The notes below the pieces were generated by a model that was not told where the DNA came from, ran no database searches, and saw only the letters and a list, made by a program, of their open reading frames with translations. Source: Dehalococcoidia bacterium (GTDB lineage Bacteria; Chloroflexota; Dehalococcoidia; Lucifugimonadales; UBA3495). From it: DNA of 64,000 nucleotides. Positions 9,926 to 59,217 of the stretch are shown here, one piece after another (the stretch's first letter is position 1; each line of letters opens with the position of its first letter). The stretch covers positions 2,442,858 through 2,506,857 of the forward strand of contig OZ220699.1 of assembly GCA_965116565.1 (NCBI GenBank), written 5' to 3'. Position numbers and translations under genes: made by a program.

Positions 9926-10591
9926 CTAAACTTCGATCTCCACGTCTCCGTACCGGTCGAAGAATCGGTCCTGCAGCCCCGAGAACTTCTCACGATACGC
10001 GTTGGTGTGGATGCGGTCCGTGGTCATGATAACCGCGTCCTCCCGGTTGTCGGCGTAGTAGTTCTTGCGGATCCCAACCTCGTTGAATCCGTATTTGTCG
10101 TACAGGCGCTGGGCAATGAAATTGGAGACCCGGGCCTCCAGCGTCACTTCCTCCAATCCCTGCTCGTAGGCCGCCCGCAGCGTCCCGATCAACAGGAGTT
10201 CGCCGATTCCCCGTCCCCTCAGGGACTCCCGCACCGCGATTTCGGTAATGTGCGCTTGGTCCCCCTGGAACCATATCCCCACGTAGCCCGCGATGGCGTC
10301 GTCTCCGTCGTCGTTCCGAGACCCGAAAACCGACGTGACCCCGCGTATCATCCGGGCCCACATCGACGAGTCGGGTGGCTCCTCCCCTTTTGGGATCCCG
10401 ACGGCTGTCGGCGTTTCGTCTTCGTTGATGAGGTATGCGACCAGGAAGCGGCAGTGCCGGCTGTTCAACTCCCTGCGGAACTGCGTGCCCACCCATCCGG
10501 TTGAAAAAGCCTCGTGCTCAATCTCTATTACCTGCGAGATATCCTCTGCTCGCATCCGACGCAACGCGACGTCCATAGCATCCTGTCCCAT
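9926..10591 (-). CDS. rimI: Ribosomal-protein-alanine N-acetyltransferase-like GNAT
   Basis: AGYVGIWFQGDQAHITEIAVRESLRGRGIGELLL...LEARVSNFIAQRLYDKYGFNEVGIRKNYYADNREDAVIM matches the RimI pattern. It carries an extra roughly 40-aa insert. The start ATG shares one nucleotide with the upstream stop (TAATG). Confidence 0.7.
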   Translation of the reverse strand: MGQDAMDVALRRMRAEDISQVIEIEHEAFSTGWVGTQFRRELNSRHCRFLVAYLINEDETPTAVGIPKGEEPPDSSMWARMIRGVTSVFGSRNDDGDDAIAGYVGIWFQGDQAHITEIAVRESLRGRGIGELLLIGTLRAAYEQGLEEVTLEARVSNFIAQRLYDKYGFNEVGIRKNYYADNREDAVIMTTDRIHTNAYREKFSGLQDRFFDRYGDVEIEV

Positions 10592-11859
10592 TATCGGGTC
10601 TGCGATCCCTCGATATCGTCGGTCATCAGCTTGACCGACCCGTACACCCCGTCGTAGCCGGGTTCTACGTAAACCTCGCCTGATCGCGCGGCCAGTACCG
10701 CCCGCGCCAGCGACTCGCCCGCCGCCGGAATCAGGTCCCTCTCCGAGGTGTACAGCAGCGTGGCAAGTTCGCTGCCGAAATGATCGGTCAGCCTATTGTA
10801 CTCCCTGACCACCCGGCGTGCGTTCACTCCCACGTTCATCGTGCCTGCGATAATTTCCTGTAGCGGCGCCAGCCGCGTGAACGGCGGATGCCAGCCATCT
10901 GATCGGATCCATCCGTCCGCGCCAACCTCCGGGTCGGTGCTGATCACCCGGCTCGACAATTCCGACACCCGGTGCAGCACCCCCAGCGTGAGCTCGCGAC
11001 CGCACACCGGACACGACGTCCCATGCGCCGCCTCGTCAGCCGGCCCGTACACCACTCCGCATTTCCGGTGCCCGCTGTAGTGGTATTTGCCTCCCTCCGG
11101 ATAAAACTCCACCGTGAAATCCGCGCCCGCATTCCGCAGCGCCTCCGACAATGCAGGCCAGGACAATTCCCCCCTCATAGCCGTCATTTCACGCCCCAAC
11201 CGCGCCGGCGAGTGCGCGTCGGAGAACGACACGATACTGCGTCCGTCCAATTCGCTCACCCACCGGTTCATCGCCGGATCCGACGACAGGCCGCTCTCCA
11301 CCGCCGTCACCAACGGCGCCAGGTCGCCGAAGCACTCCTCCAGGCTGTCGAACCCGCCCTTCGATCCGTAAACCCCGTACCACGGCGTCCAGGCGTGTGC
11401 CGGAATCACGATCGACTCTGGATGACAGTCCAAAGCCAGCTCCATGAGGTCCCGGGCCGAAAGGCTGACCGTCGGTCGTCCGTCGTTGGTCAGTTTGCCG
11501 TGCTCGCTCAGCCCGTACGTCAGGTCATCCGCCGCATCCAGTGTGGGCATCAGTACCAGCACGTGAATACGCCGCGTCCGCCCACCCTGCTTGTACACGC
11601 AGCTGATCTCCGTGCCGGGCACGAACCTCACGCCGTTGTAACTGTGCAGCCCGTCGTCATCGACCCGCAGACCCGCACGAAGCTCTTTGGCCCAAAGGGG
11701 ATGGGTGAAGTCGCCGGTCGCCAGGAGGTCAATCCCTTTGCGGCCCGCCCAGCTACTGAGCGAATCCAGCGACAGCGCCTTGCTGCAGGCGAACGCATAC
11801 CGCGAATGGATGTGCAGATCAGCGATGAACGACGCCGACCCGTCCGGATGGCCGGGCAT
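10591..11859 (-). CDS. Endonuclease Q-like PHP-domain nuclease with zinc finger
   Basis: ADLHIHSRYA, ATGDFTHPLW, PAHAWTPW, ESGLSSDPAM, SFSDAHSPARLGRE, GGKYH, CPVCGRELTLGVLHRV, PPFTRLAPLQEII, HFGSE and the C-terminal GYDGVYG all parallel archaeal EndoQ as I recall it. ATG 11857-11859 overlaps the upstream TGA (TGATG). Confidence 0.75.
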   Translation of the reverse strand: MPGHPDGSASFIADLHIHSRYAFACSKALSLDSLSSWAGRKGIDLLATGDFTHPLWAKELRAGLRVDDDGLHSYNGVRFVPGTEISCVYKQGGRTRRIHVLVLMPTLDAADDLTYGLSEHGKLTNDGRPTVSLSARDLMELALDCHPESIVIPAHAWTPWYGVYGSKGGFDSLEECFGDLAPLVTAVESGLSSDPAMNRWVSELDGRSIVSFSDAHSPARLGREMTAMRGELSWPALSEALRNAGADFTVEFYPEGGKYHYSGHRKCGVVYGPADEAAHGTSCPVCGRELTLGVLHRVSELSSRVISTDPEVGADGWIRSDGWHPPFTRLAPLQEIIAGTMNVGVNARRVVREYNRLTDHFGSELATLLYTSERDLIPAAGESLARAVLAARSGEVYVEPGYDGVYGSVKLMTDDIEGSQTR

Positions 11860-12656: not shown

Positions 12657-14117
12657 TTACGCCAATATCTCTTTCAAGGCTCGCAGCGCATCATCATCCT
12701 GCTCGGGCAGCACCGTTCTTGGGTCCAGCCGCACCGCATCGTCCTCGATCCGCGCGATCACCGGCGTCGATCTGCCGCGCAGCCCTGCCAGCAGCGACTC
12801 CGGGCTCATACCGCCGCCATTGGCCGAGATCGAAAGCGCCCACGACTCCAGCGTCTCTCCCGGCAGGCTGCCGCCCCCGACAGCCGACCTCGCGGGTTCG
12901 ACGGTTATCTCGCATCCCGGCGATCCTCCAACCATTACGCGCCATCGTTCCGCCCTGGCCTTGATGTCGCCCGGTTTCGCGGCAATCATACGCCACACCG
13001 GCACCTCGGACTCCGCGGTTCCGCTCAGGTAGTGCGTCAGCGTCGCGGTCAGGCTGGCGAGGCTCATCTTGTCGATGCGCACCGCCCGCGCCAGCGGGTG
13101 CCGCTCCAGCGTCTGCACCAGTTCCCGCGTGCCCACCACGATGCCGGCCTGCGGGCCGCCCAGCAGCTTGTCCCCGGAAAAGAACACCAGCCCGGTACCG
13201 GCCGCGATTGCCTCCTGCGGCATTGGCTCGTGCGCCAGGCCGTACCTGTCCGTCGGCAGCAAAGCGCCGGATCCCACGTCGTGCAACACCGGAATCCCCG
13301 CGTGTTCCCCAAGTTGCACTAACTCCCGCTCGTCCACAGCGGCGGTGAACCCTTCCACGCGAAAGTTGCTGGCGTGAGCTTTCAGGAAGGCGGCCGTGTC
13401 ATCCGTCACGGCGTCCGCGTAGTCGCGCACGTAAGTCCGGTTGGTCGTGCCGACGTCCACCAGCGTGCATCCGCTCTGGCGCAGCACGTCGGGGATGCGG
13501 AACCCGCCGCCGATCTCCACAGCCTCGCCCCGCGCCACTATGACCTCGCGCCCGGCCGCCAGCGCCGCCAGTCCCAGCAGCAGCGCCGACGCGTTGTTGT
13601 TCACCACCAACGCGGCCTCCGCGCCCGTGATCTGCCGCAGCAGAGATTGCAGGTGCGCCTGCCTAGACCCCCGTCGACCCGTAGAGAGATCTATCTCCAG
13701 GTCCGAGTACCCACGCGCCACGGCATCGGCGGCGGCCAATGCGGCCTTGCTCAACGGCGCCCGACCCAGGTTCGTATGGATCACCACTCCCGTCGCGTTG
13801 ATCAGCGGTCTCGGCGACGGCGCCACCAGGTCGTCGATGGTGCGGCGCACCGTCTCGGCGATCTCATCCAGGGACCCGGATTCGCCCCCGGCAAGTATGC
13901 TCCGCCGCGCTTCGTCAACCGCGTCCCGCGTCAAGTCCACCACCCAGTCGCGGCCGTAGGTCGAAACCGCGTCCGCCAGCGTGTCGCTGCTGACGACGCG
14001 CTCGACGCTCGGGAGGTTGCGTAGTAGTTGACTGGTCACGGATCTCTTCGGCGCGCCCATTGGGTTAAACGACGGGTTGGGCCGCTGTATTCTATCATCC
14101 GATCTGCTTCTCGCCAT
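12657..14117 (-). CDS. selA: L-seryl-tRNA(Sec) selenium transferase
   Basis: LINATGVVIHTNLGRAPL and the PLP-lysine motif FFSGDKLLGGPQAGIVVG are SelA signatures. The start is uncertain (ATG candidates at 14117, 14060 and 14138; the track ORF begins at 14159). Confidence 0.88.
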   Translation of the reverse strand: MARSRSDDRIQRPNPSFNPMGAPKRSVTSQLLRNLPSVERVVSSDTLADAVSTYGRDWVVDLTRDAVDEARRSILAGGESGSLDEIAETVRRTIDDLVAPSPRPLINATGVVIHTNLGRAPLSKAALAAADAVARGYSDLEIDLSTGRRGSRQAHLQSLLRQITGAEAALVVNNNASALLLGLAALAAGREVIVARGEAVEIGGGFRIPDVLRQSGCTLVDVGTTNRTYVRDYADAVTDDTAAFLKAHASNFRVEGFTAAVDERELVQLGEHAGIPVLHDVGSGALLPTDRYGLAHEPMPQEAIAAGTGLVFFSGDKLLGGPQAGIVVGTRELVQTLERHPLARAVRIDKMSLASLTATLTHYLSGTAESEVPVWRMIAAKPGDIKARAERWRVMVGGSPGCEITVEPARSAVGGGSLPGETLESWALSISANGGGMSPESLLAGLRGRSTPVIARIEDDAVRLDPRTVLPEQDDDALRALKEILA

Positions 14118-14242
14118 GCCCTCCATCGAGAGCGACATGCCTGACAACACAACCCGCAAGCCCGGCTGCTATCGACTATAATTGAGCCCCGCATTTCCCG
14201 GCGCGCACCGCCAACCCTACGGTTTCAGTAGGAGGTCACAGC

Positions 14243-21067: not shown

Positions 21068-22172
21068 TTACTCGCCACCCAGCTTGCTCACCAAGTACGC
21101 CTCGATGAAACCGTCGATCCCGCCGGCCAGCACCGCGTCCGTATTCCCTGATTGGTAATCCGTCCGGTGGTCCTTCACCGACTTGTACGGATGCAAAACG
21201 TAGCTGCGTATCTGGTTGCCCCATTCGGCCGACACCCGCTCGCCCCGTATGCTCGAAAGTTCCTGCTCTCGTTCCGCCTCCCTCAACGCCAGCAGCTTCG
21301 CCCGCAGGATCCGCATCGCGTAGTCCCGGTTCTGGTGCTGCGATCGCTCGGTCTGACACGAAACGACGATGCCCGAGGGCGTGTGCGTCAACCGAACCGC
21401 CGACGCCACCTTTTGCACGTTCTGTCCGCCGGGCCCGCTGGAGCGGAAAAAGTCCATCTTGAGGTCTTCCGGCCTGATCTCCACCTCCGCGTCGTCATCC
21501 ACCACCGCGGGCAGGACCTCCACCCGCGCGAACGATGTTTGTCGTCGCCGCGCCGGGTCGAACGGCGACATCCTCACCAGCCGGTGTACCCCCACCTCCG
21601 CGTTCAGGAAACCGAAAGCGTGTTGCCCGCCTATCTCCATCGTGCTCGTGCGCAGGCCGGCTTCGTCGCCGTACGCCGTGTCCAGCACCTGCACCGGTCG
21701 GCCGTCGGTGGAAGCCCAGCCGGCGTACATCCCTGTCAGCATCTCCACCCAGTCGTGTGAGTCAGTGCCCCCGGCGCCTGAATGTATCGTGAGGATGGCC
21801 GGTCGGTCGTCGTAGGGCCCCGACAGCGTCAACTCCATCTCGGCTCGCGCCAGGCGGTTGCCCACGTCGTCGGCCTCGGCGGTCAGCTCATCTTCCAGGC
21901 TGTCGTCGTCGTTCTCGATGGCAAGCTCGGTCAGTTCCGCCAGGTCGGCAACTTGCGATTGCAGCCCCCTCCACAACTCCACCGACTGCTGGAGCCGGCC
22001 CAGTTCCTGCATCTTGCGTTGCGCCGATCCAGGGTCATCCCAGAATCCGGCAGCGGCAGCCTCAGTCTCCAGTTCGGAAATGGATTTCTCCCTGCCGGCG
22101 AGGTCAAAGCCGCTCCACGACCGCGTCCAACTTGACGGCCATTTCGGCAAGTCGCTGGCTGAGTTCATCCAT
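21068..22172 (-). CDS. prfB: Peptide chain release factor 2, requires programmed +1 frameshift (22172..22107 joined to 22105..21068)
   Basis: Frame 0 reads MDELSQRLAEMAVKLDAVVERL then CTT TGA C. The +1 frame continues DLAGREKSISELE... to the RF2 body with the SPF and GGQ motifs. The track ORF (21068-22168) is the +1 frame only. Confidence 0.9.
22103..22109 (-). promoter_or_regulatory. RF2 autoregulatory +1 frameshift site CUU UGA C
   Basis: Sense sequence GTGGAGCGG CTT TGA C. The SD-like GGAG lies 3 nt upstream of CTT, the same layout as the E. coli prfB shift site. Confidence 0.85.
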
Positions 22173-24150: not shown

Positions 24151-24453
24151 ATGGCCATATTCAGAACCGACGGCCAGAGGCCCAAAGCAACGGTTACGAC
24201 GCACCAGGCTACTCCGGAAGAGCTCGCTCATTGGCGAGACTCCGTTGCCCGCTCCGAACGCCTCCGGGCAATGCGCCCCGAGCTGATCAAGAAATACCCC
24301 GATAAGTGGGTTGCGCTGACTGAGAACTGGGTGCTTGTGGTTGCAGACTCAGTGGAAGAGCGGAGAAAAAAGATCGAGGAACTTGGCGAACATCCGGGCT
24401 TCGCTGCGCGGGAGTTTTTGAACACCAAGCCACGCCCTCGAATAATTCTATGA
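24151..24453 (+). CDS. Small DUF5678-like protein (100 aa)
   Basis: GAGGAG RBS. The core YPDKWVALTENWVLVVADSVEE resembles the DUF5678 family as I recall it. ATGA overlap with the next gene. Confidence 0.5.
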   Translation: MAIFRTDGQRPKATVTTHQATPEELAHWRDSVARSERLRAMRPELIKKYPDKWVALTENWVLVVADSVEERRKKIEELGEHPGFAAREFLNTKPRPRIIL

Positions 24454-24863
24454 TTACCGGCTATTTCGCTCCGGATGGCAGCCCTCGCATGATGGTGCGG
24501 GTGCATCTACCGAGGCTTGGCATACTCGGGGGCGTTGATTTTCTGATTGACACCGGAACCGATACTACTGTCCTTCATCCAACTGACGCGGATGACTTGC
24601 ACTGCCCCTTTGACGAACTGTCCAACCCGTCAGTCTCCACCAGCGTGGGCGGGCCACACACTTACTACGCCGAAAGCGCAGTAGTATCGCTTTACGATGG
24701 CGAAACCCGCCATGACCTCCGTGTGGACATCCACATCGGCAAGCCACACCCCGTGACCAACGGCCTGGACTCACTGCTCGGGCGCGACGTGCTGAACGAG
24801 TTGGATATGCAATATGCTCCACGGCGCGGCCAGTTGGTCTTCTCGCTGGATGGAGAACCGTAG
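24450..24863 (+). CDS. Retropepsin-like (clan AA) aspartic protease, 137 aa
   Basis: Catalytic FLIDTGTDTTVL (D-T-G) and a late SLLGRDVL motif. Single-domain size implies a homodimer. Confidence 0.7.
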   Translation: MITGYFAPDGSPRMMVRVHLPRLGILGGVDFLIDTGTDTTVLHPTDADDLHCPFDELSNPSVSTSVGGPHTYYAESAVVSLYDGETRHDLRVDIHIGKPHPVTNGLDSLLGRDVLNELDMQYAPRRGQLVFSLDGEP

Positions 24864-24880
24864 CCGCGCCGCCTAACTCC

Positions 24881-25744
24881 CTACTGCGCCAACTCCCTCA
24901 GCGCCCCCACGTAGTCCCCGCCTCCGCCGTATCCCTTGCGGAACGTGATGACCCCATGCGAATCCATGGCGATCATCGACGATTGGCTGGTGATCCTCAG
25001 GTCCGCCAGCATCGAACCTAGCGGCTGCGTGGAGATCATGTCGGAGTAACCGTTTTCTACGACGTACTGTTCCAGGCGGCTCGCGCTTTCGCTGAACGAC
25101 ACCAGGTAGAAATCGACCTTATCTGCGTTTTCGGTAACAACTGGGGCAAGCGACCGTAACTCGGCGCGGCAGGTTGGTCACCAGGTCGCGAAGTACATCA
25201 TGAACGCCGGTTTACCCGCAGCGGTCAGGTCCGCCAGCGCCACCGGTGTCCCGTCCGTCCGCTCCATCGTGAACGCCGGCGGAATCTCCCCAACGTTCGT
25301 CCCCTCCGGCGCGGCCGGCACGGATTCGGTGGGAGGTGGAGCCATCGTAGCCGCTTCAGTTGGAGGCGCCGCGGCCGCCGTGGGTGCGGCTGTTGGTGCC
25401 GAGGGTGCCTCGGTAGCCACTGCTGGTGGTGGCGGCGCCTGCGATTGGCCCCCGGCCGGCGCTGTCGTGTTGGTCGGCGCCGGCGCGGCAACGGCAGCGG
25501 TCGTCTCAGTGGGAACCGCCGGCGCTTCTGTCGCCGAGGCCGCCGGCGGAGCCGATTCCGTCGCCGACTCCATCATGGCCGTCGGAGCGTCGGTGGGCAA
25601 CGCGACCTCGGTTGCCTGCGACGCTGCGGGTTGCTCCGGTGCCGCCGGCGGAGGTGGCGGAGACGGTTCTGACCCGCACGCCGATAGAAACGCGACCATT
25701 CCGGCCGCGATTGTGACAGCGAATATTCCGTGAATCTTTCTCAT
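24881..25744 (-). CDS. TlpA/thioredoxin-like lipoprotein, predicted selenoprotein (Sec codon TGA at 25178-25180)
   Basis: Track fragments 25178-25744 and 24881-25102 are in one frame across a TGA. Read-through gives FMMYFATW-U-PTC-RAELRSLAPVV...FYLVSF...ITFRKGYG, a thioredoxin fold. Lipobox AFLSAC, and a long Ala/Pro/Thr linker. Confidence 0.8.
25150..25167 (-). promoter_or_regulatory. Candidate bacterial SECIS hairpin for the 24881-25744 gene
   Basis: It starts 10 nt after the TGA: GCGCCG-AGUUA-CGG(U)CGC. A hairpin of the same geometry follows the paralog's TGA. Confidence 0.65.
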
Positions 25745-25787
25745 TTCGTCAGGCCTTCGGCGTCAACGACGCCGCACACTATCCTCA

Positions 25788-26393
25788 TCAACTTGGCAGT
25801 TGCAAGTCTTGCTGTCTCTGGTCTTTTTGCCGTTGAATTTCAACCTCCGGCGGTATGGCCATCGGGTCGGCGGTCAGCGCTCCGAAGTACGGCTCCCAGG
25901 TCGCCGCGCTGCCCATCACCTGCCGGTGGTAGATCATCCCGTTCCCGTTCACCGCCATCATCGCCATTTGCCGGGTGACCTGCAGGTCCGCCAGCATTGT
26001 GCCGACGGGTTCGGCGGGTATTACGTCGGTGTAACCATGCTCCTCAATATATTCGGCAATCTCGTCGACTGACTCGTTGTACGAAACAACGTAGAAGTCA
26101 AGGCCGGGGTATTTCGATGCGATGGGATCCAGCGTCTGCAACTCAGCGCGGCACTCGGGTCACCAGGTTGCGAACCAGAAAAGGTGCGCCGCCTGGTTGT
26201 CGTCCACTATGTCCTTGAGCGATACCTCGGTGCCGTCCTCCAGCGTCATCGCAAACGGCGGCGACGTGTTCCCAACCTCTATGCCCGCAACCCCGACGGC
26301 CGGGCCGTCCGAGGCCGGCGCGCAGGCCAGCGCCACCAGCAACATCAGCGTTGCCAACGCTCCGGCCCACACATGTCGCGGCATTGTCGCCAT
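25788..26393 (-). CDS. TlpA/thioredoxin-like lipoprotein, predicted selenoprotein (Sec codon TGA at 26160-26162)
   Basis: Track fragments 26160-26393 and 25788-26141 are in one frame across a TGA. Read-through gives HLFWFATW-U-PEC-RAELQTLDPIASKYPGLDFYVVSY...MIYHRQ. Lipobox LLVALAC. Confidence 0.8.
26132..26149 (-). promoter_or_regulatory. Candidate bacterial SECIS hairpin for the 25788-26393 gene
   Basis: It starts 10 nt after the TGA: GCGCUG-AGUUG-CAG(A)CGC. Relative to the paralog, the inner stem C-G pair is replaced by U-A. Confidence 0.65.
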
Positions 26394-26523
26394 TCGGTGT
26401 TTTACCTTCAGCCTCCAGCGTATCTGTTATGCTGGCTGGCGTCCTAGCGCGATTCTAGCAGACCCGCCGTCAACATAGAATACGCGCACGTCGCCCGCTC
26501 GGATCTCTCGAGGAGTCTCCCCG

Positions 26524-28575
26524 ATGCCTAACCGCCTTGCCAACGAGACCAGTCCCTACCTTCTCCAGCACGCCGAAAATCCGGTGGACTGGTATCCCTG
26601 GGGCGAAGAGGCCCTCAACCGCGCCCGCGACGAGGACCGTCCCATCCTCCTCAGCATCGGCTACTCCGCCTGCCACTGGTGCCACGTCATGGAACGCGAG
26701 TCCTTCGAGAACGATGACATCGCTGCCGTCATGAACCAGCATTTCGTCAACATCAAGGTTGACCGCGAGGAGCGCCCCGACCTCGACGCCGTGTACATGG
26801 AAGCCATCCAGATGCTCACCGGCAGCGGCGGCTGGCCCATGACCGTGTTCTTGACCCCTGAAGGCCGGCCCTTCTACGGCGGCACCTACTTCCCCCCCGA
26901 GGATCGCCAGGGCATGCCCGGTTTCCCTCGCCTGTTGGAGGCCGCCAGCCAGGCTTACCAGACCAACAAGAGCGAAATCGAGCGTGTAACCCGCCAGCTT
27001 TCCGAGCAGATGGGCCGCTCCGGCCAGATGCCGCGCGGCTTCACGCCCCTCACCACCGAGGTGATGCACAACGCCTACTCCCAGCTTGCCACCCAGTTTG
27101 ACCACCTCAACGGCGGCTTCGGCAACGCTCCCAAGTTCCCCCAGCCCATGACCCCGGAGTTCCTGCTGCGCTACTACCGCCACGGATTCAACATCCGCGC
27201 GCTGGAAATGGTCGAGCACACGTTGCAGAAAATGGCCTACGGCGGCATGTACGACCAGGTCGGCGGCGGTTTCCACCGCTACTCCACCGATGCCTACTGG
27301 CTCGTCCCCCACTTCGAAAAGATGCTTTATGACAACGCCCTCCTGGCCCGCCTCTATCTCCACGCGTGGCAGATCACCCGCAACCCCCTGTACCGGCGTA
27401 TCACCGAGGAAACCCTGGATTACGTCCTGCGCGAGATGACCGACTCCGCCGGCGGCTTCTACTCAGCCCAGGACGCCGACAGCGAGGGCGTGGAGGGCAA
27501 GTTCTTCGTGTGGACGCCCGACGAGTTGCGGCCCCTGCTTGGCGACGACGCCGACCTCATCATGGCCTACTACGGTGTCTCCGAGCGAGGTAACTTCGAA
27601 GGTTCCAACATCCTCAACGTCGCCCGCCCGCCGGACGAATTCGCCGATCAACGCGGCGTTTCCGAGGAAACGTTGCTCGGCGCCATCGCCCGCGCTCGCG
27701 CTACCCTCCTCGATGTCCGCGAGCAGCGTATCCACCCGCTCCTCGACGACAAGGTGCTCACGTCGTGGAACGGCCTCATGCTCCGCGCTTTCGCCGAGGC
27801 CGGCGCCGCCCTCGATCGCGCTGACTACCTGGACGCCGCCAGGGCCAACGCGGCGTTCCTCCTCGAAAACATGCGCGACGCCAGCGGCCGCGTCCTACGA
27901 ACCTGGCGCAACGGCGAGGCCAAGCTCCTCGGTTACCTCGAAGACTACTCCTGCCTCGCCGACGGCCTGACCGCCCTCCACGAAGCGACCCTCGAACCCC
28001 GCTGGCTTCAGGAAGCCGTTGCCACTGCGGACGGCATGATCAACCTTTTCTGGGACGACGTCGTTGGGGGCTTCTACGACACCGGCAATGACCACGAACA
28101 GCTTGTCATCCGCCCCCGCGACGTGTTCGACAACGCGCAGCCCTGCGGCGGCTCCGTCGCCACCGACGTGCTCCTCCGGCTCGGCGTAATCACCGGCAAC
28201 GACGACTACTCATCCAAGGGCGCAACCCCTCTCCGTGCGTTGCAACAGCTTTTGGGCCGCGCGCCCAGCGCCACCGGGCACTGGCTGGGCGCCCTGGACT
28301 TCTACGTCTCCCTGCCTCGCGAAATCGTCATCGTCGGCCCCGCCGGCGCTGATTCCACCCGCTCAATGCTCCGCGAGGTCAACTCACGCTTCATGCCCAA
28401 CAAGGTCGCCGTGGGCATGGCCGATCCCGCCAACCCGCCGTTGAAAGACTCCCCGCTGCTGGAACAACGCGCCATGCAGGACGGCCAACCCACCGCCTAC
28501 GTCTGCGAAAACTACGCCTGCCAACTCCCAGTGACCGACGCAGCCGCCCTCGCCGCCCAACTCGACCGCCAGTAA
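26524..28575 (+). CDS. Thioredoxin-domain protein of the YyaL/DUF255 (SSP411-like) family
   Basis: [29 protein letters not shown]...[22 protein letters not shown], followed by an alpha/alpha-toroid-like C-terminal region. Confidence 0.88.
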
Positions 28576-58200: not shown

Positions 58201-59217
58201 TCACGTGGTTGGCGCTCCCAGGGACGCGACCCAAACCGCGCCCACGACGTACGCGGACGCCATGATCGCCAGCCCGGCTACGAGCAACGGCTGCGGGAAT
58301 CTATTGCGACCCCAAAGCATCAGGCCGCCGAACAGTATCAGGCCGGCCGCGAAAAGGCCTGCTACGAAGTGCTCGGGTTCCGGGTTGTTCAGCACAATTC
58401 CTTTTCTATAGAACGGATCGGCATACGACAGGATCGTTATATTGAACACGCAGCTTCCGTATAGTCCGGCCACTCCCAGGTCTGCGGCCCCCATTCTTGC
58501 CGCTGCGACGGTGGCTGAAGCTTCCGGCATGGTGGTCACGATTGAGACCGCCAGGATTCCAAGCACGCCGGATGAGATTCCTGTGAGATCCGCCACTCGG
58601 TCCACGCTTTGCGCGAGGAAAACGCCGGCGACGATGACGCCAAGCGACACCAGGCCGAACATGATCCAGGCCTTGCTGAGTGTTATGCCCGTGTCTTCTT
58701 CCTCATCCTCATCTGCGCCCGCCGGGCGACGCTGGTACACGAACCACATCCCGATCAGGTAAACGATCAAAAGAATTATGGACGACAGGCCGATCTGCCA
58801 GACGTTGATTCCGTTCTTCAAGCCCGCAAATAGCACAGCCAAACCGGTCAACACTGCGGCTAAGACGATCAGGTAGCCCTGCTCCGGGGCCACTCGCTGG
58901 AGGAACCTCTTGCCTCCGAAAACCAGGGCCACCATGGCCAGGGTGAACATGTTGACCATGTTGGCCCCGACTACGTTGCCCAGAGCGAGCTGCGGGTTGT
59001 CGATCTGCACCGCTGTGATGTTGTTGGAAAGTTCGGGTAGCGAGGTCGCCAGCGCGACCAGGATGCTTCCCACGAACAGGCGACCCCAGCCCGTCAAAGT
59101 GGCTAGCGCATCGCCATATTTCGCAAGCTGCACGCCGAGAAATACGACGGCCACCGCGCTGGCAAGGAAAACGATGATGGCAACGGTGAGGCCAACGCTG
59201 CCCAGCAAGTTGAACAC
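58201..59217 (-). CDS. Sodium/calcium exchanger (CaCA/YrbG-like) membrane protein
   Basis: Two alpha-repeats: ATSLPELSNN...GNVVGANMVN and TTMPEASATV...GSCVFN. GTG start. Confidence 0.78.
   Translation of the reverse strand: MFNLLGSVGLTVAIIVFLASAVAVVFLGVQLAKYGDALATLTGWGRLFVGSILVALATSLPELSNNITAVQIDNPQLALGNVVGANMVNMFTLAMVALVFGGKRFLQRVAPEQGYLIVLAAVLTGLAVLFAGLKNGINVWQIGLSSIILLIVYLIGMWFVYQRRPAGADEDEEEDTGITLSKAWIMFGLVSLGVIVAGVFLAQSVDRVADLTGISSGVLGILAVSIVTTMPEASATVAAARMGAADLGVAGLYGSCVFNITILSYADPFYRKGIVLNNPEPEHFVAGLFAAGLILFGGLMLWGRNRFPQPLLVAGLAIMASAYVVGAVWVASLGAPTT

Follow-up and report, generated by a model that had tools for sequence, protein, structure and literature searches.

Are the four open reading frame (ORF) fragments on the minus strand at positions 24881-26393 of a 64-kb stretch of Dehalococcoidia DNA the remains of two broken genes, or are they two intact genes, here called A and B, whose in-frame TGA codons are read as selenocysteine (Sec, U)? 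The stretch, positions 2,442,858 to 2,506,857 of contig OZ220699.1, was analysed over its full 64,000 nucleotides and is referred to below as the window. The original prediction, made from its letters, held that A and B encode two membrane-anchored selenoproteins of the UxxC type, in which a UGA codon takes the place of the attacking Cys of a CxxC motif. Our comparative sequence analysis supports this core claim: the UGA codons are conserved, they align with Cys in homologous proteins, covarying hairpins follow them, the coding sequence is under selection on both sides of them, a selA gene lies in the window, and both N-termini carry a lipobox. On this basis, genes A and B very likely encode two exported UxxC selenoproteins. 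The same comparison suggests that gene A extends beyond its first apparent stop and ends in a pair of adjacent Sec residues. We put the probability of the overall explanation, a UxxC selenoprotein operon that most likely includes this Sec-Sec tail, at roughly 0.8.

Reading frames of genes A and B

The minus strand of the locus consists of two consecutive frames, A and then B, each with one internal in-frame TGA in the common context FATW-TGA-PxC-RAEL.

25779-26393, minus strand: gene A, predicted lipoprotein-type redoxin/TlpA-like selenoprotein, 204 codons if the tail is read, with Sec78 in U78-P-E-C81
24881-25744, minus strand: gene B, predicted lipoprotein-type redoxin/TlpA-like selenoprotein, 287 amino acids, with Sec189 in U189-P-T-C192

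Gene A is represented by the ORF fragments 26160-26393 and 25788-26141, and gene B by 25178-25744 and 24881-25102. From its ATG at 26393, gene A runs to 25788 when the first TGA of its tail is taken as the stop, with the internal TGA at 26162-26160 and 375 nt from there to the stop. Gene B extends from the ATG at 25744 to the TAG at 24883-24881, with the internal TGA at 25180-25178 and a corresponding distance of 300 nt. Each gene reads through in a single frame, as ...HLFWFATW*PECRAELQTLDPIAS... in gene A (local string HLFWFATW-[TGA]-PEC-RAELQTL) and as ...FMMYFATW*PTCRAELRSLAPVV... in gene B (local string FMMYFATW-[TGA]-PTC-RAELRSL). The four fragments, their frames and the two distances agree to the base with the original prediction, and its read-through across FATW-U-PxC was reproduced for both genes.

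When Cys was substituted for the TGA, gene A matched the Pfam families AhpC-TSA (E 4e-10) and Redoxin (E 3e-8), and gene B matched the same families (E 4e-9 and 1.5e-8). All of these matches lie above the curated cut-offs, with 40 and 36.9 bits for AhpC-TSA (cut-off 26) and 34 and 35 bits for Redoxin (cut-off 26.6) in the two proteins, in line with the claim that read-through yields a thioredoxin-fold protein. Two features of a redoxin/TlpA-like fold (PF00578, PF08534, cd02966) were found, namely the domain and a CxxC-type motif where helix 1 begins. The expectation that such genes would be annotated as fragments was also borne out, as the public gene calls do split A and B; at the related locus L052, for example, they give pieces of 78, 117 and 73 amino acids.

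The TGA codon at the position of the nucleophilic cysteine

The best match of gene B in the PDB is E. coli DsbE/CcmG (2g0f, 2b1k; E 3e-8). The active-site string of CcmG in 2g0f, WATWCPTCRAE, corresponds to FATW-U-PTCRAE in gene B, which places the TGA on the first, nucleophilic Cys, and the W-U-P-x-C motif lines up with WCPxC of CcmG, ResA and DsbF. In addition, a Cys-containing homologue, P0068, is a full-length lipoprotein of 188 amino acids (FFFATWCPVCRSEL) with 46% identity to the gene B domain, and its Cys aligns to the TGA. Thus, as proposed from the window, the TGA stands at the attacking Cys of CxxC. A profile search with the C-terminal half of gene A against 1.84 billion representative proteins returned only 19 relatives, P0068 being one of them, and most of the other matches were fragments of about 95 amino acids that begin just past the motif, representing further TGA-split relatives.

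CcmG/DsbE, ResA and TlpA are thiol-disulfide reductases that contain Cys, act outside the cytoplasm and take part in the maturation of cytochrome c and CuA. Genes A and B resemble them in their nearly identical active-site string and in a predicted membrane anchor outside the cytoplasm, but they differ in having Sec for Cys, in the loop that normally contains the cis-Pro (TRQ-M and [VT]SQ-S), and in the absence of ccm, res or ccdA genes nearby. None of the specific families DsbE/CcmG, ResA, TlpA and StoA (NCBIfam) scored above its curated cut-off, the scores being 22-44 bits against cut-offs of 123-230 (TIGR00385 dsbE, 44 bits against 123.15; ResA, 29.5 against 170; TlpA, 22.7 against 230). 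The equivalents of the cis-Pro loop, placed by alignment, are as follows.

25970-25981, minus strand: TRQM of gene A
24982-24993, minus strand: TSQS of gene B

At the cis-Pro site itself, hidden Markov model (HMM) alignments to CcmG (GAP/AETF) and M. tuberculosis DsbF (TQQPAY) place Met in gene A (TRQM, in 39 of the 43 copies with the motif located) and Ser in gene B ([VT]SQS, 44 of 48), in both cases after a conserved Thr/Val-x-Gln. The Cys homologue P0068 lacks the cis-Pro as well (LQQ-S). The family scores below cut-off, together with the replaced cis-Pro loop, identify A and B as a distinct subfamily, and their chemistry may differ from that of classic TlpA/CcmG.

Conservation and selection around the internal TGA codons

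A protein search with gene A yielded 59 clusters with identity down to 51%, nearly all of exactly 117 amino acids, which is the piece 3' of the TGA. For the scan of the loci one genome was taken per species, giving 51 loci, or 52 with the window; all 51 derive from metagenome-assembled genomes (MAGs) of Dehalococcoidia, SAR202 or Chloroflexota. Over the 52 loci, the site motif F[AG]TW-x-xxC-[RK][AS]EL occurs in 100 copies, and its x codon is TGA at all 100 sites and never TGC, TGT, TAA or TAG, a recurrence that greatly exceeds anything chance would produce. Both genes were found in 48 of the 52 loci, the exceptions being L047 and L051, which lie at contig ends, and L029 and L030. The residues ahead of the TGA vary slightly among orthologues, for instance FMHYFATW in gene B and HLFGFATW in gene A.

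Compared with the window, the orthologues show proportions of synonymous differences (pS) of ~0.53-0.61 and of non-synonymous differences (pN) of ~0.20-0.23 on both sides of both TGAs. In gene A, the median ratio of non-synonymous to synonymous substitution rates (dN/dS) is 0.29 for the part before the UGA and 0.19 for the part after it; the two parts of gene B have values of 0.20 and 0.22. The P-x-C-R-A-E-L stretch between the TGA and the putative internal start is almost invariant and contains the second active-site Cys. Purifying selection on both halves indicates that both are translated and constrained, which excludes pseudogenes and assembly errors. True truncation and miscalled TGC or TGT codons, two of the outcomes that would have undone the prediction, are therefore contradicted by the uniform TGA and by the constraint on either side of it.

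One public protein, P0056 (152 amino acids), appears to run across the Sec site as ...FFISPPG-PECRAELQ.... Its N-terminal part is in another frame, as expected from a 2-nt deletion in TGGTGACC, and its C-terminus is also frameshifted; it probably reflects indel errors in a long-read assembly and not a Gly variant.

Hairpins downstream of the internal UGA codons

A bacterial Sec insertion sequence (SECIS) would be expected immediately 3' of each UGA, and the original prediction called for a search of this region. A hairpin was found at both sites.

26132-26149, minus strand: internal hairpin of gene A, GCGCUG-AGUUG-CAG(A)CGC, starting 10 nt past the UGA
25150-25167, minus strand: internal hairpin of gene B, GCGCCG-AGUUA-CGG(U)CGC, starting 10 nt past the UGA

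Both have a 6-bp stem and an A-GUU-R loop. Over 91 aligned sites, 99.6% of the internal-hairpin cells are paired, and the hairpin covaries. Of the 100 sites, 52 have C-G and 48 have U-A at its one variable pair (21:29), with no U-G or C-A intermediate, and both states are present in the A lineage as well as in the B lineage. This change couples a synonymous third position of Ala (GCC/GCU) to the second position of an Arg/Gln codon (CGG/CAG). Within the element, the third positions of the CGC Arg, GAG Glu, CRG and ACG codons are invariant, and Leu is encoded only by UUR in the loop and only by CUN where it closes the stem; third positions just outside vary freely. Synonymous sites that are frozen inside the element and free outside it indicate an RNA structure overlaid on the coding sequence. 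In the textbook bacterial SECIS, 17 nt suffice for a stem-loop that carries G(U) in its apical loop and stands about 11 nt from the UGA (PMC11431864; PMC1088965), and the predicted elements in A and B fit this geometry.

The C-terminal tail of gene A and the intergenic hairpin

The first TGA of the gene A tail had been taken as the stop codon, and a 7-bp hairpin had been noted in the gap between the two genes. The hairpin was confirmed at 25774-25758. The stop assignment was probably wrong, as the tail pattern and this third hairpin suggest that the TGAs here are Sec codons.

25788-25790, minus strand: TGA, probable Sec202
25785-25787, minus strand: TGA, probable Sec203, followed by Gly204 and the TAG at 25781-25779
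25758-25774, minus strand: intergenic hairpin CGGCGUC-GUU-GACGCCG, 7 bp, past the TAG and 10 nt after the second UGA

Past ...D-L-Q-L-P-S, the window reads TGA TGA GGA TAG, then 4 nt, and then the intergenic hairpin. The first two codons of the tail are TGA TGA in all 49 loci compared. The third is GGA, GGG or GGC in 24 loci, CAA or CAG in 24 and TAA in one, and the fourth is a stop in every case (TAG in 38, TAA in 8, TGA in 3). The pattern TGA-TGA-(GGN or CAR)-(TAG/TAA/TGA) thus holds in 48 of the 49 loci, the remaining one having TGA-TGA-TAA-TAG. The genuine stop of gene B toggles among stop codons in the same way as codon 4 of the gene A tail, and few residues of the gene A protein are as well conserved as D-[LIM]-Q-L-P-[SA], just ahead of the tail TGAs. 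Since stops drift, whereas the two TGAs are fixed and codon 3 changes only synonymously within Gly or within Gln, these data point to ribosomes passing both TGAs.

The intergenic hairpin is present in 49 of 49 loci with 99.4% of its positions paired, and three of its pairs show compensatory double changes, such as U-A to C-G in eight sequences. Every locus keeps the G and the first U of the GUU loop, and 46 of 49 also have U as its third base. When its closing C-G pair is opened, the structure becomes a 6-bp stem with a C-GUU-G loop, which is the design of the internal A-GUU-R elements, and the loop G is the 18th nucleotide past the A of the second UGA, exactly as at the internal elements. No U tract follows the hairpin, it was not flagged as a terminator, and it leaves the Shine-Dalgarno region of gene B uncovered.

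Throughout the window, a scan for a TGA followed by a 6-bp stem with an N-GUU-R loop picked up both internal sites, each of the two tail TGAs and, beyond these, a single weak match. In 415 kb of related loci, searched on both strands, 133 matches with the spacing of the internal elements fell at the known sites and 2 elsewhere. The weak match, at 58769 on the minus strand, lies inside a Ca/Na antiporter-like gene, with a spacing of 22 nt and a weak AU/GU-rich stem; considered as a further SECIS, it was judged to be probably due to chance because of its different spacing and weak stem.

In bacteria, C-terminal Sec can be inserted with a SECIS placed directly 3' of the stop (PMC11431864). The intergenic hairpin probably plays this part for the two UGAs at the end of gene A and would be the third SECIS of the locus. 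We consider it likely from the comparison that gene A spans 26393 to 25779 and ends ...LQLPS-U202-U203-G204-stop, with the third SECIS beyond the stop. On balance, we also favour the fuller proposal that its product is a triple-Sec lipoprotein with a vicinal Sec-Sec end, decoded from consecutive UGAs through a single SECIS past the stop. In this proposal the tail would serve as a mobile diselenide arm for redox chemistry, doing outside the bacterial cytoplasm what the Cys-Sec arm does in thioredoxin reductase, or else would bind a soft metal.

Selenocysteine machinery and genetic code

The window contains one component of the Sec machinery.

12657-14159, minus strand: selA, L-seryl-tRNA(Sec) selenium transferase (TIGR00474 equivalog, E 2e-164, 547.6 bits against a cut-off of 267.9)

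It lies 10.7 kb from A and B, close to the 11 kb originally given. ARAGORN detected no tRNA of any kind in the window, and selB, selD and tRNA-Sec are assumed to be located elsewhere in the genome. The prfB gene for release factor 2 (RF2) is present at 21068-22168 on the minus strand, and TGA terminates ribD, nnr, a rihA-like gene and a SIMPL-domain gene of the window. The presence of prfB together with the use of TGA as an ordinary stop indicates that the codon is unreassigned here. A search of the window by motif for other genes with in-frame TGA was too noisy and yielded no further selenoprotein gene. Among the genomes in BSepDB, Dehalococcoidia MAGs are reported to be some of the richest in selenoprotein genes, with 46-49 each (PMC13326102).

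As a minor observation, prfB matches its model only from residue 17 onwards, and a short ORF overlaps its 3' end.

Alternative explanations

Several observations weigh against the interpretation favoured here. The elements gave no Rfam match, either in the whole window at the gathering threshold or in 24700-26500 at E <= 10, and the 73 nt past each internal UGA fold no better than shuffled sequences (z = +1.05 and 0.0). As single-sequence folding is unremarkable, the case for the hairpins rests on the comparison across loci. Neither selB nor selD (NCBIfam, about 30 window ORFs) nor a tRNA-Sec was found in the 64-kb window, and the near-universal cis-Pro is, by alignment, absent from A (Met) and B (Ser). 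With regard to the tail, no homologue with Cys at either UGA was present among the 59 clusters, 49 loci and 19 relatives, and we know of no characterised precedent for two adjacent UGAs served by one hairpin. Finally, the intergenic hairpin always precedes gene B, standing 14-25 nt upstream of its start in every locus with B, and a role in the expression of B is inseparable by comparison.

The observations on the tail, together with the public gene calls, which all end at the first TGA, speak for a reading in which A and B are indeed UxxC selenoproteins but gene A ends at that TGA, the two TGAs forming a tandem stop and the hairpin being a spacer element for mRNA stability, processing or translation of B. 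We regard this as unlikely. Genuine stops toggle among TAG, TAA and TGA, whereas the two tail TGAs are fixed in 49 species-level genomes, and a third codon that varies only synonymously, followed by a fourth that is always a stop, would be pointless if ribosomes never arrived there. The hairpin shares its GUU loop, its stem length and its exact UGA-to-loop distance with the internal elements; it misses the Shine-Dalgarno sequence of B and is without a U tract, and the D-[LIM]-Q-L-P-[SA] stretch in front of the TGAs ranks among the best conserved parts of the protein.

It is highly improbable that A and B are pseudogenes or genuinely split genes whose downstream pieces start at an internal TTG or GTG. 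Such internal start codons exist and gene callers give exactly these fragments in all public assemblies, but the same codon is TGA at 100 of 100 sites over a pS of ~0.55, purifying selection acts on both sides, and the near-invariant P-x-C-R-A-E-L with the second active-site Cys would be lost. To our knowledge, there is also no precedent for a thioredoxin fold cut at its active site. The reading of UGA as Trp, Cys or Gly, through a reassigned code of the kind that exists in some uncultured bacterial lineages or through a suppressor tRNA, could draw on the lack of a tRNA-Sec in the window, but it hardly agrees with an RF2 gene and several well-supported genes ending in TGA, with a selA whose role is solely in Sec-tRNA(Sec) synthesis, with a site that is the catalytic Cys of CxxC and has a covarying hairpin at SECIS distance, or with the reported richness of Dehalococcoidia in selenoproteins. 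We therefore retain the UxxC operon, with the probable Sec-Sec tail of gene A, as the basis of what follows.

Export, anchoring and proposed mechanism

The N-termini of A and B each consist of a short charged stretch, a hydrophobic run and a lipobox (LVALAC/AP in A, AFLSAC/GS in B). Two putative signal peptides and one linker were delimited.

26325-26393, minus strand: signal peptide of gene A, residues 1-23, MATMPRHVWAGALATLMLLVALA before C-APAS, with the codon of the lipobox Cys24 at 26324-26322
25679-25744, minus strand: signal peptide of gene B, residues 1-22, MRKIHGIFAVTIAAGMVAFLSA before C-GSEP, lipobox L-S-A-C23 with the Cys codon at 25678-25676
25295-25675, minus strand: Pro/Ala/Thr-rich low-complexity tether of gene B, about 125 residues from the anchor to the redoxin domain

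The lipoprotein assignment, already proposed from the window, follows from sequence pattern, and the lipobox Cys and its context are kept in all full-length orthologues (...[AS]-C-A-P-[AST] in A, ...[AS]-C-[GAS] in B). About 15 residues separate the anchor from the domain in gene A. The long tether of gene B occurs in all orthologues, with a poorly conserved sequence.

An ORF of 177 amino acids lies antisense to the gene B linker (25200-25733, plus strand), and on the related chromosome L052 a gene of 137 amino acids was called at 10502-10915 on the minus strand, antisense to the equivalent linker stretch. Such an antisense gene is most likely a spurious call, arising because the linker is GC-rich low-complexity sequence and gene B is split.

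From these data, we infer Sec insertion itself, the reading of the tail, lipidation, the direction of electron flow and the nature of the substrates. The two-gene operon would encode two paralogous, lipid-anchored extracytoplasmic thioredoxin-fold oxidoreductases of the redoxin/TlpA/CcmG type, in which the nucleophilic first Cys of CxxC is replaced by Sec (U-P-E-C in A, U-P-T-C in B). At each internal site, the hairpin with its 6-bp stem and 5-nt N-GUU-R loop, 10 nt past the UGA, would recruit SelB with Sec-tRNA(Sec) and thereby outdo termination by RF2. Translation of gene A would finish as ...D-L-Q-L-P-S-U-U-G-stop, both UGAs being served by the hairpin just past the TAG in the A-B spacer. 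After export and lipidation at Cys24 in A and Cys23 in B, protein A would be held near the membrane and protein B on its tether of about 125 residues.

Outside the cytoplasm, the Sec/Cys pair would cycle between the selenol/thiol and the selenenylsulfide, reducing extracytoplasmic substrates or exchanging with them, and A and B are accordingly best described as probable extracytoplasmic selenol/thiol-disulfide oxidoreductases. By analogy with mammalian thioredoxin reductase, the Sec-Sec tail of A would provide a further, mobile redox centre in the form of a vicinal diselenide. Alternatively, it could possibly serve as a ligand for a soft metal such as Cu(I); both the Met-rich linkers found in 14 of 50 orthologues and the Met that replaces the cis-Pro would fit such a role.

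Those linkers contain a Met-rich insert after the lipobox Cys, for example GMAGMEMGSMAAP or MSMDMEGM. The insert occurs in gene A orthologues from L013-L035, L047 and L050, and gene A of the window is without it. Inserts of this kind resemble periplasmic Cu(I)-binding Met motifs.

Relation to known selenoproteins

A 2026 review recognises 119 prokaryotic selenoprotein families (PMC13188914). Related UxxC families are listed in its Table 1 and were first reported in PMC1088965 and PMC2398784, consistent with the remark in the original prediction that UxxC redoxins are known from selenoproteome surveys. We judged the relation to these families, and to the UXX-star families considered below, from the table entries of the review. 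Like the listed UxxC families, A and B have AhpC-TSA/Redoxin domains with Sec first in UxxC, Cys homologues exist, and a predicted bacterial SECIS with G in a small apical loop follows just 3'. The listed families have one Sec, or one or two in the UxxU form, whereas three are probable in gene A, including a neighbouring pair at its C-terminus. At this locus the UxxC part was to be expected, if badly annotated, and the surprise lies in the tail.

None of the 119 families listed in PMC13188914 has a 'UU' motif. With the Cys-substituted tail, a search of NCBIfam at E <= 10 found no selenoprotein-specific model, although the HMMER filters drop most matches above ~0.1, and the X-star models NF041114, NF041211 and NF041212 gave no match to gene A at E <= 10. 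The X-star families, with Sec a few residues from the C-terminus, comprise UXX-star 1 and 2, GUXX-star, UXPK-star and KCU-star (PMC13188914 Table 1, citing Haft & Tolstoy 2025). The predicted tail of gene A, U-U-G-stop, would resemble UXX-star in having Sec three residues before the stop and a SECIS past the stop; a thioredoxin fold and a second Sec at an internal position are also found in UXX-star family 1. The tail would differ in that the middle X is itself Sec, so that the UGAs are adjacent. The Sec-Sec tail with a 3' SECIS is therefore probably what is new in gene A.

Mammalian thioredoxin reductase has a C-terminal Gly-Cys-Sec-Gly redox arm. The predicted tail of gene A would share with this arm the flexible X-(Cys/Sec)-Sec-Gly-stop arrangement, in which adjacent chalcogens can close an eight-membered ring. 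The likeness is one of mechanism only, since the fold and the kingdom are unrelated, the pair would be Sec-Sec and not Cys-Sec, and the 3' SECIS would be a natural one. In E. coli expression constructs for C-terminal Sec, the SECIS is placed right past the stop (PMC11431864).

A and B occur in public assemblies only as unnamed fragments, and their correct reading would give each genome two more selenoproteins, with as many as four Sec residues between them, in a group of Dehalococcoidia/SAR202 MAGs that includes marine and sponge-derived bins. If the tail is read as proposed, a natural vicinal diselenide would constitute a new redox or metal-binding motif, and two UGAs on one 3' hairpin would probe the spacing tolerance of SelB-dependent recoding. 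A compact natural SECIS of 17 nt past a stop codon would also be a candidate for recombinant C-terminal Sec tagging.

Neighbouring genes and related loci

The genes that flank A and B are the following.

26524-28575, plus strand: DUF255/DsbH-type thioredoxin-domain protein, 683 amino acids (PF03190, E 1e-78), divergent from gene A at a distance of about 130 bp
24450-24863, plus strand: retropepsin-like aspartyl protease, 137 amino acids (PF13650, DTG motif), convergent with gene B

The DUF255/DsbH-type gene lies upstream and divergent of gene A in 37 of 50 related loci, and co-regulation of the two is possible. The retropepsin-like gene is found in only 11 of the related loci, and thrS is a conserved neighbour in 49 of 50. 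No ccdA/dsbD or cytochrome c maturation genes were detected among the approximately 30 window ORFs scanned (NCBIfam), and the neighbouring genes indicate no substrate or electron donor for A and B.

Two relatives found in the protein searches have a different context or architecture. The gene of the Cys homologue P0068 adjoins a DUF4395 (PF14340) gene in three contigs (L053, L054 and L055, 7223-8567) with transposases around it, which suggests a mobile two-gene unit. Protein P0064 (285 amino acids) has a redoxin domain with CPLS (CxxS) instead of UxxC; its N-terminal ~140 residues start in a TIR-like manner (…DVFISHAGEDKEPF…), and it may be a TIR-redoxin fusion.

The original prediction regarded a tandem paralogous pair as unusual. 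This view does not hold among the relatives, given that the tandem is present in 48 of 52 loci and that some relatives have two or three domains in a row. In the relative L056 (5494-7600), a PT-rich linker connects two UxxC redoxin domains (FFFATF-U-PTC and FFFASF-U-PAC) within a single lipoprotein, whose gene is followed by one with a third UxxC motif (FFFGTT-U-TVC). The neighbours in L056 include two genes of the UGSC family (PF24696), a known selenoprotein family, as well as two CCP_MauG cytochrome c peroxidases and a Rieske/molybdopterin oxidoreductase.

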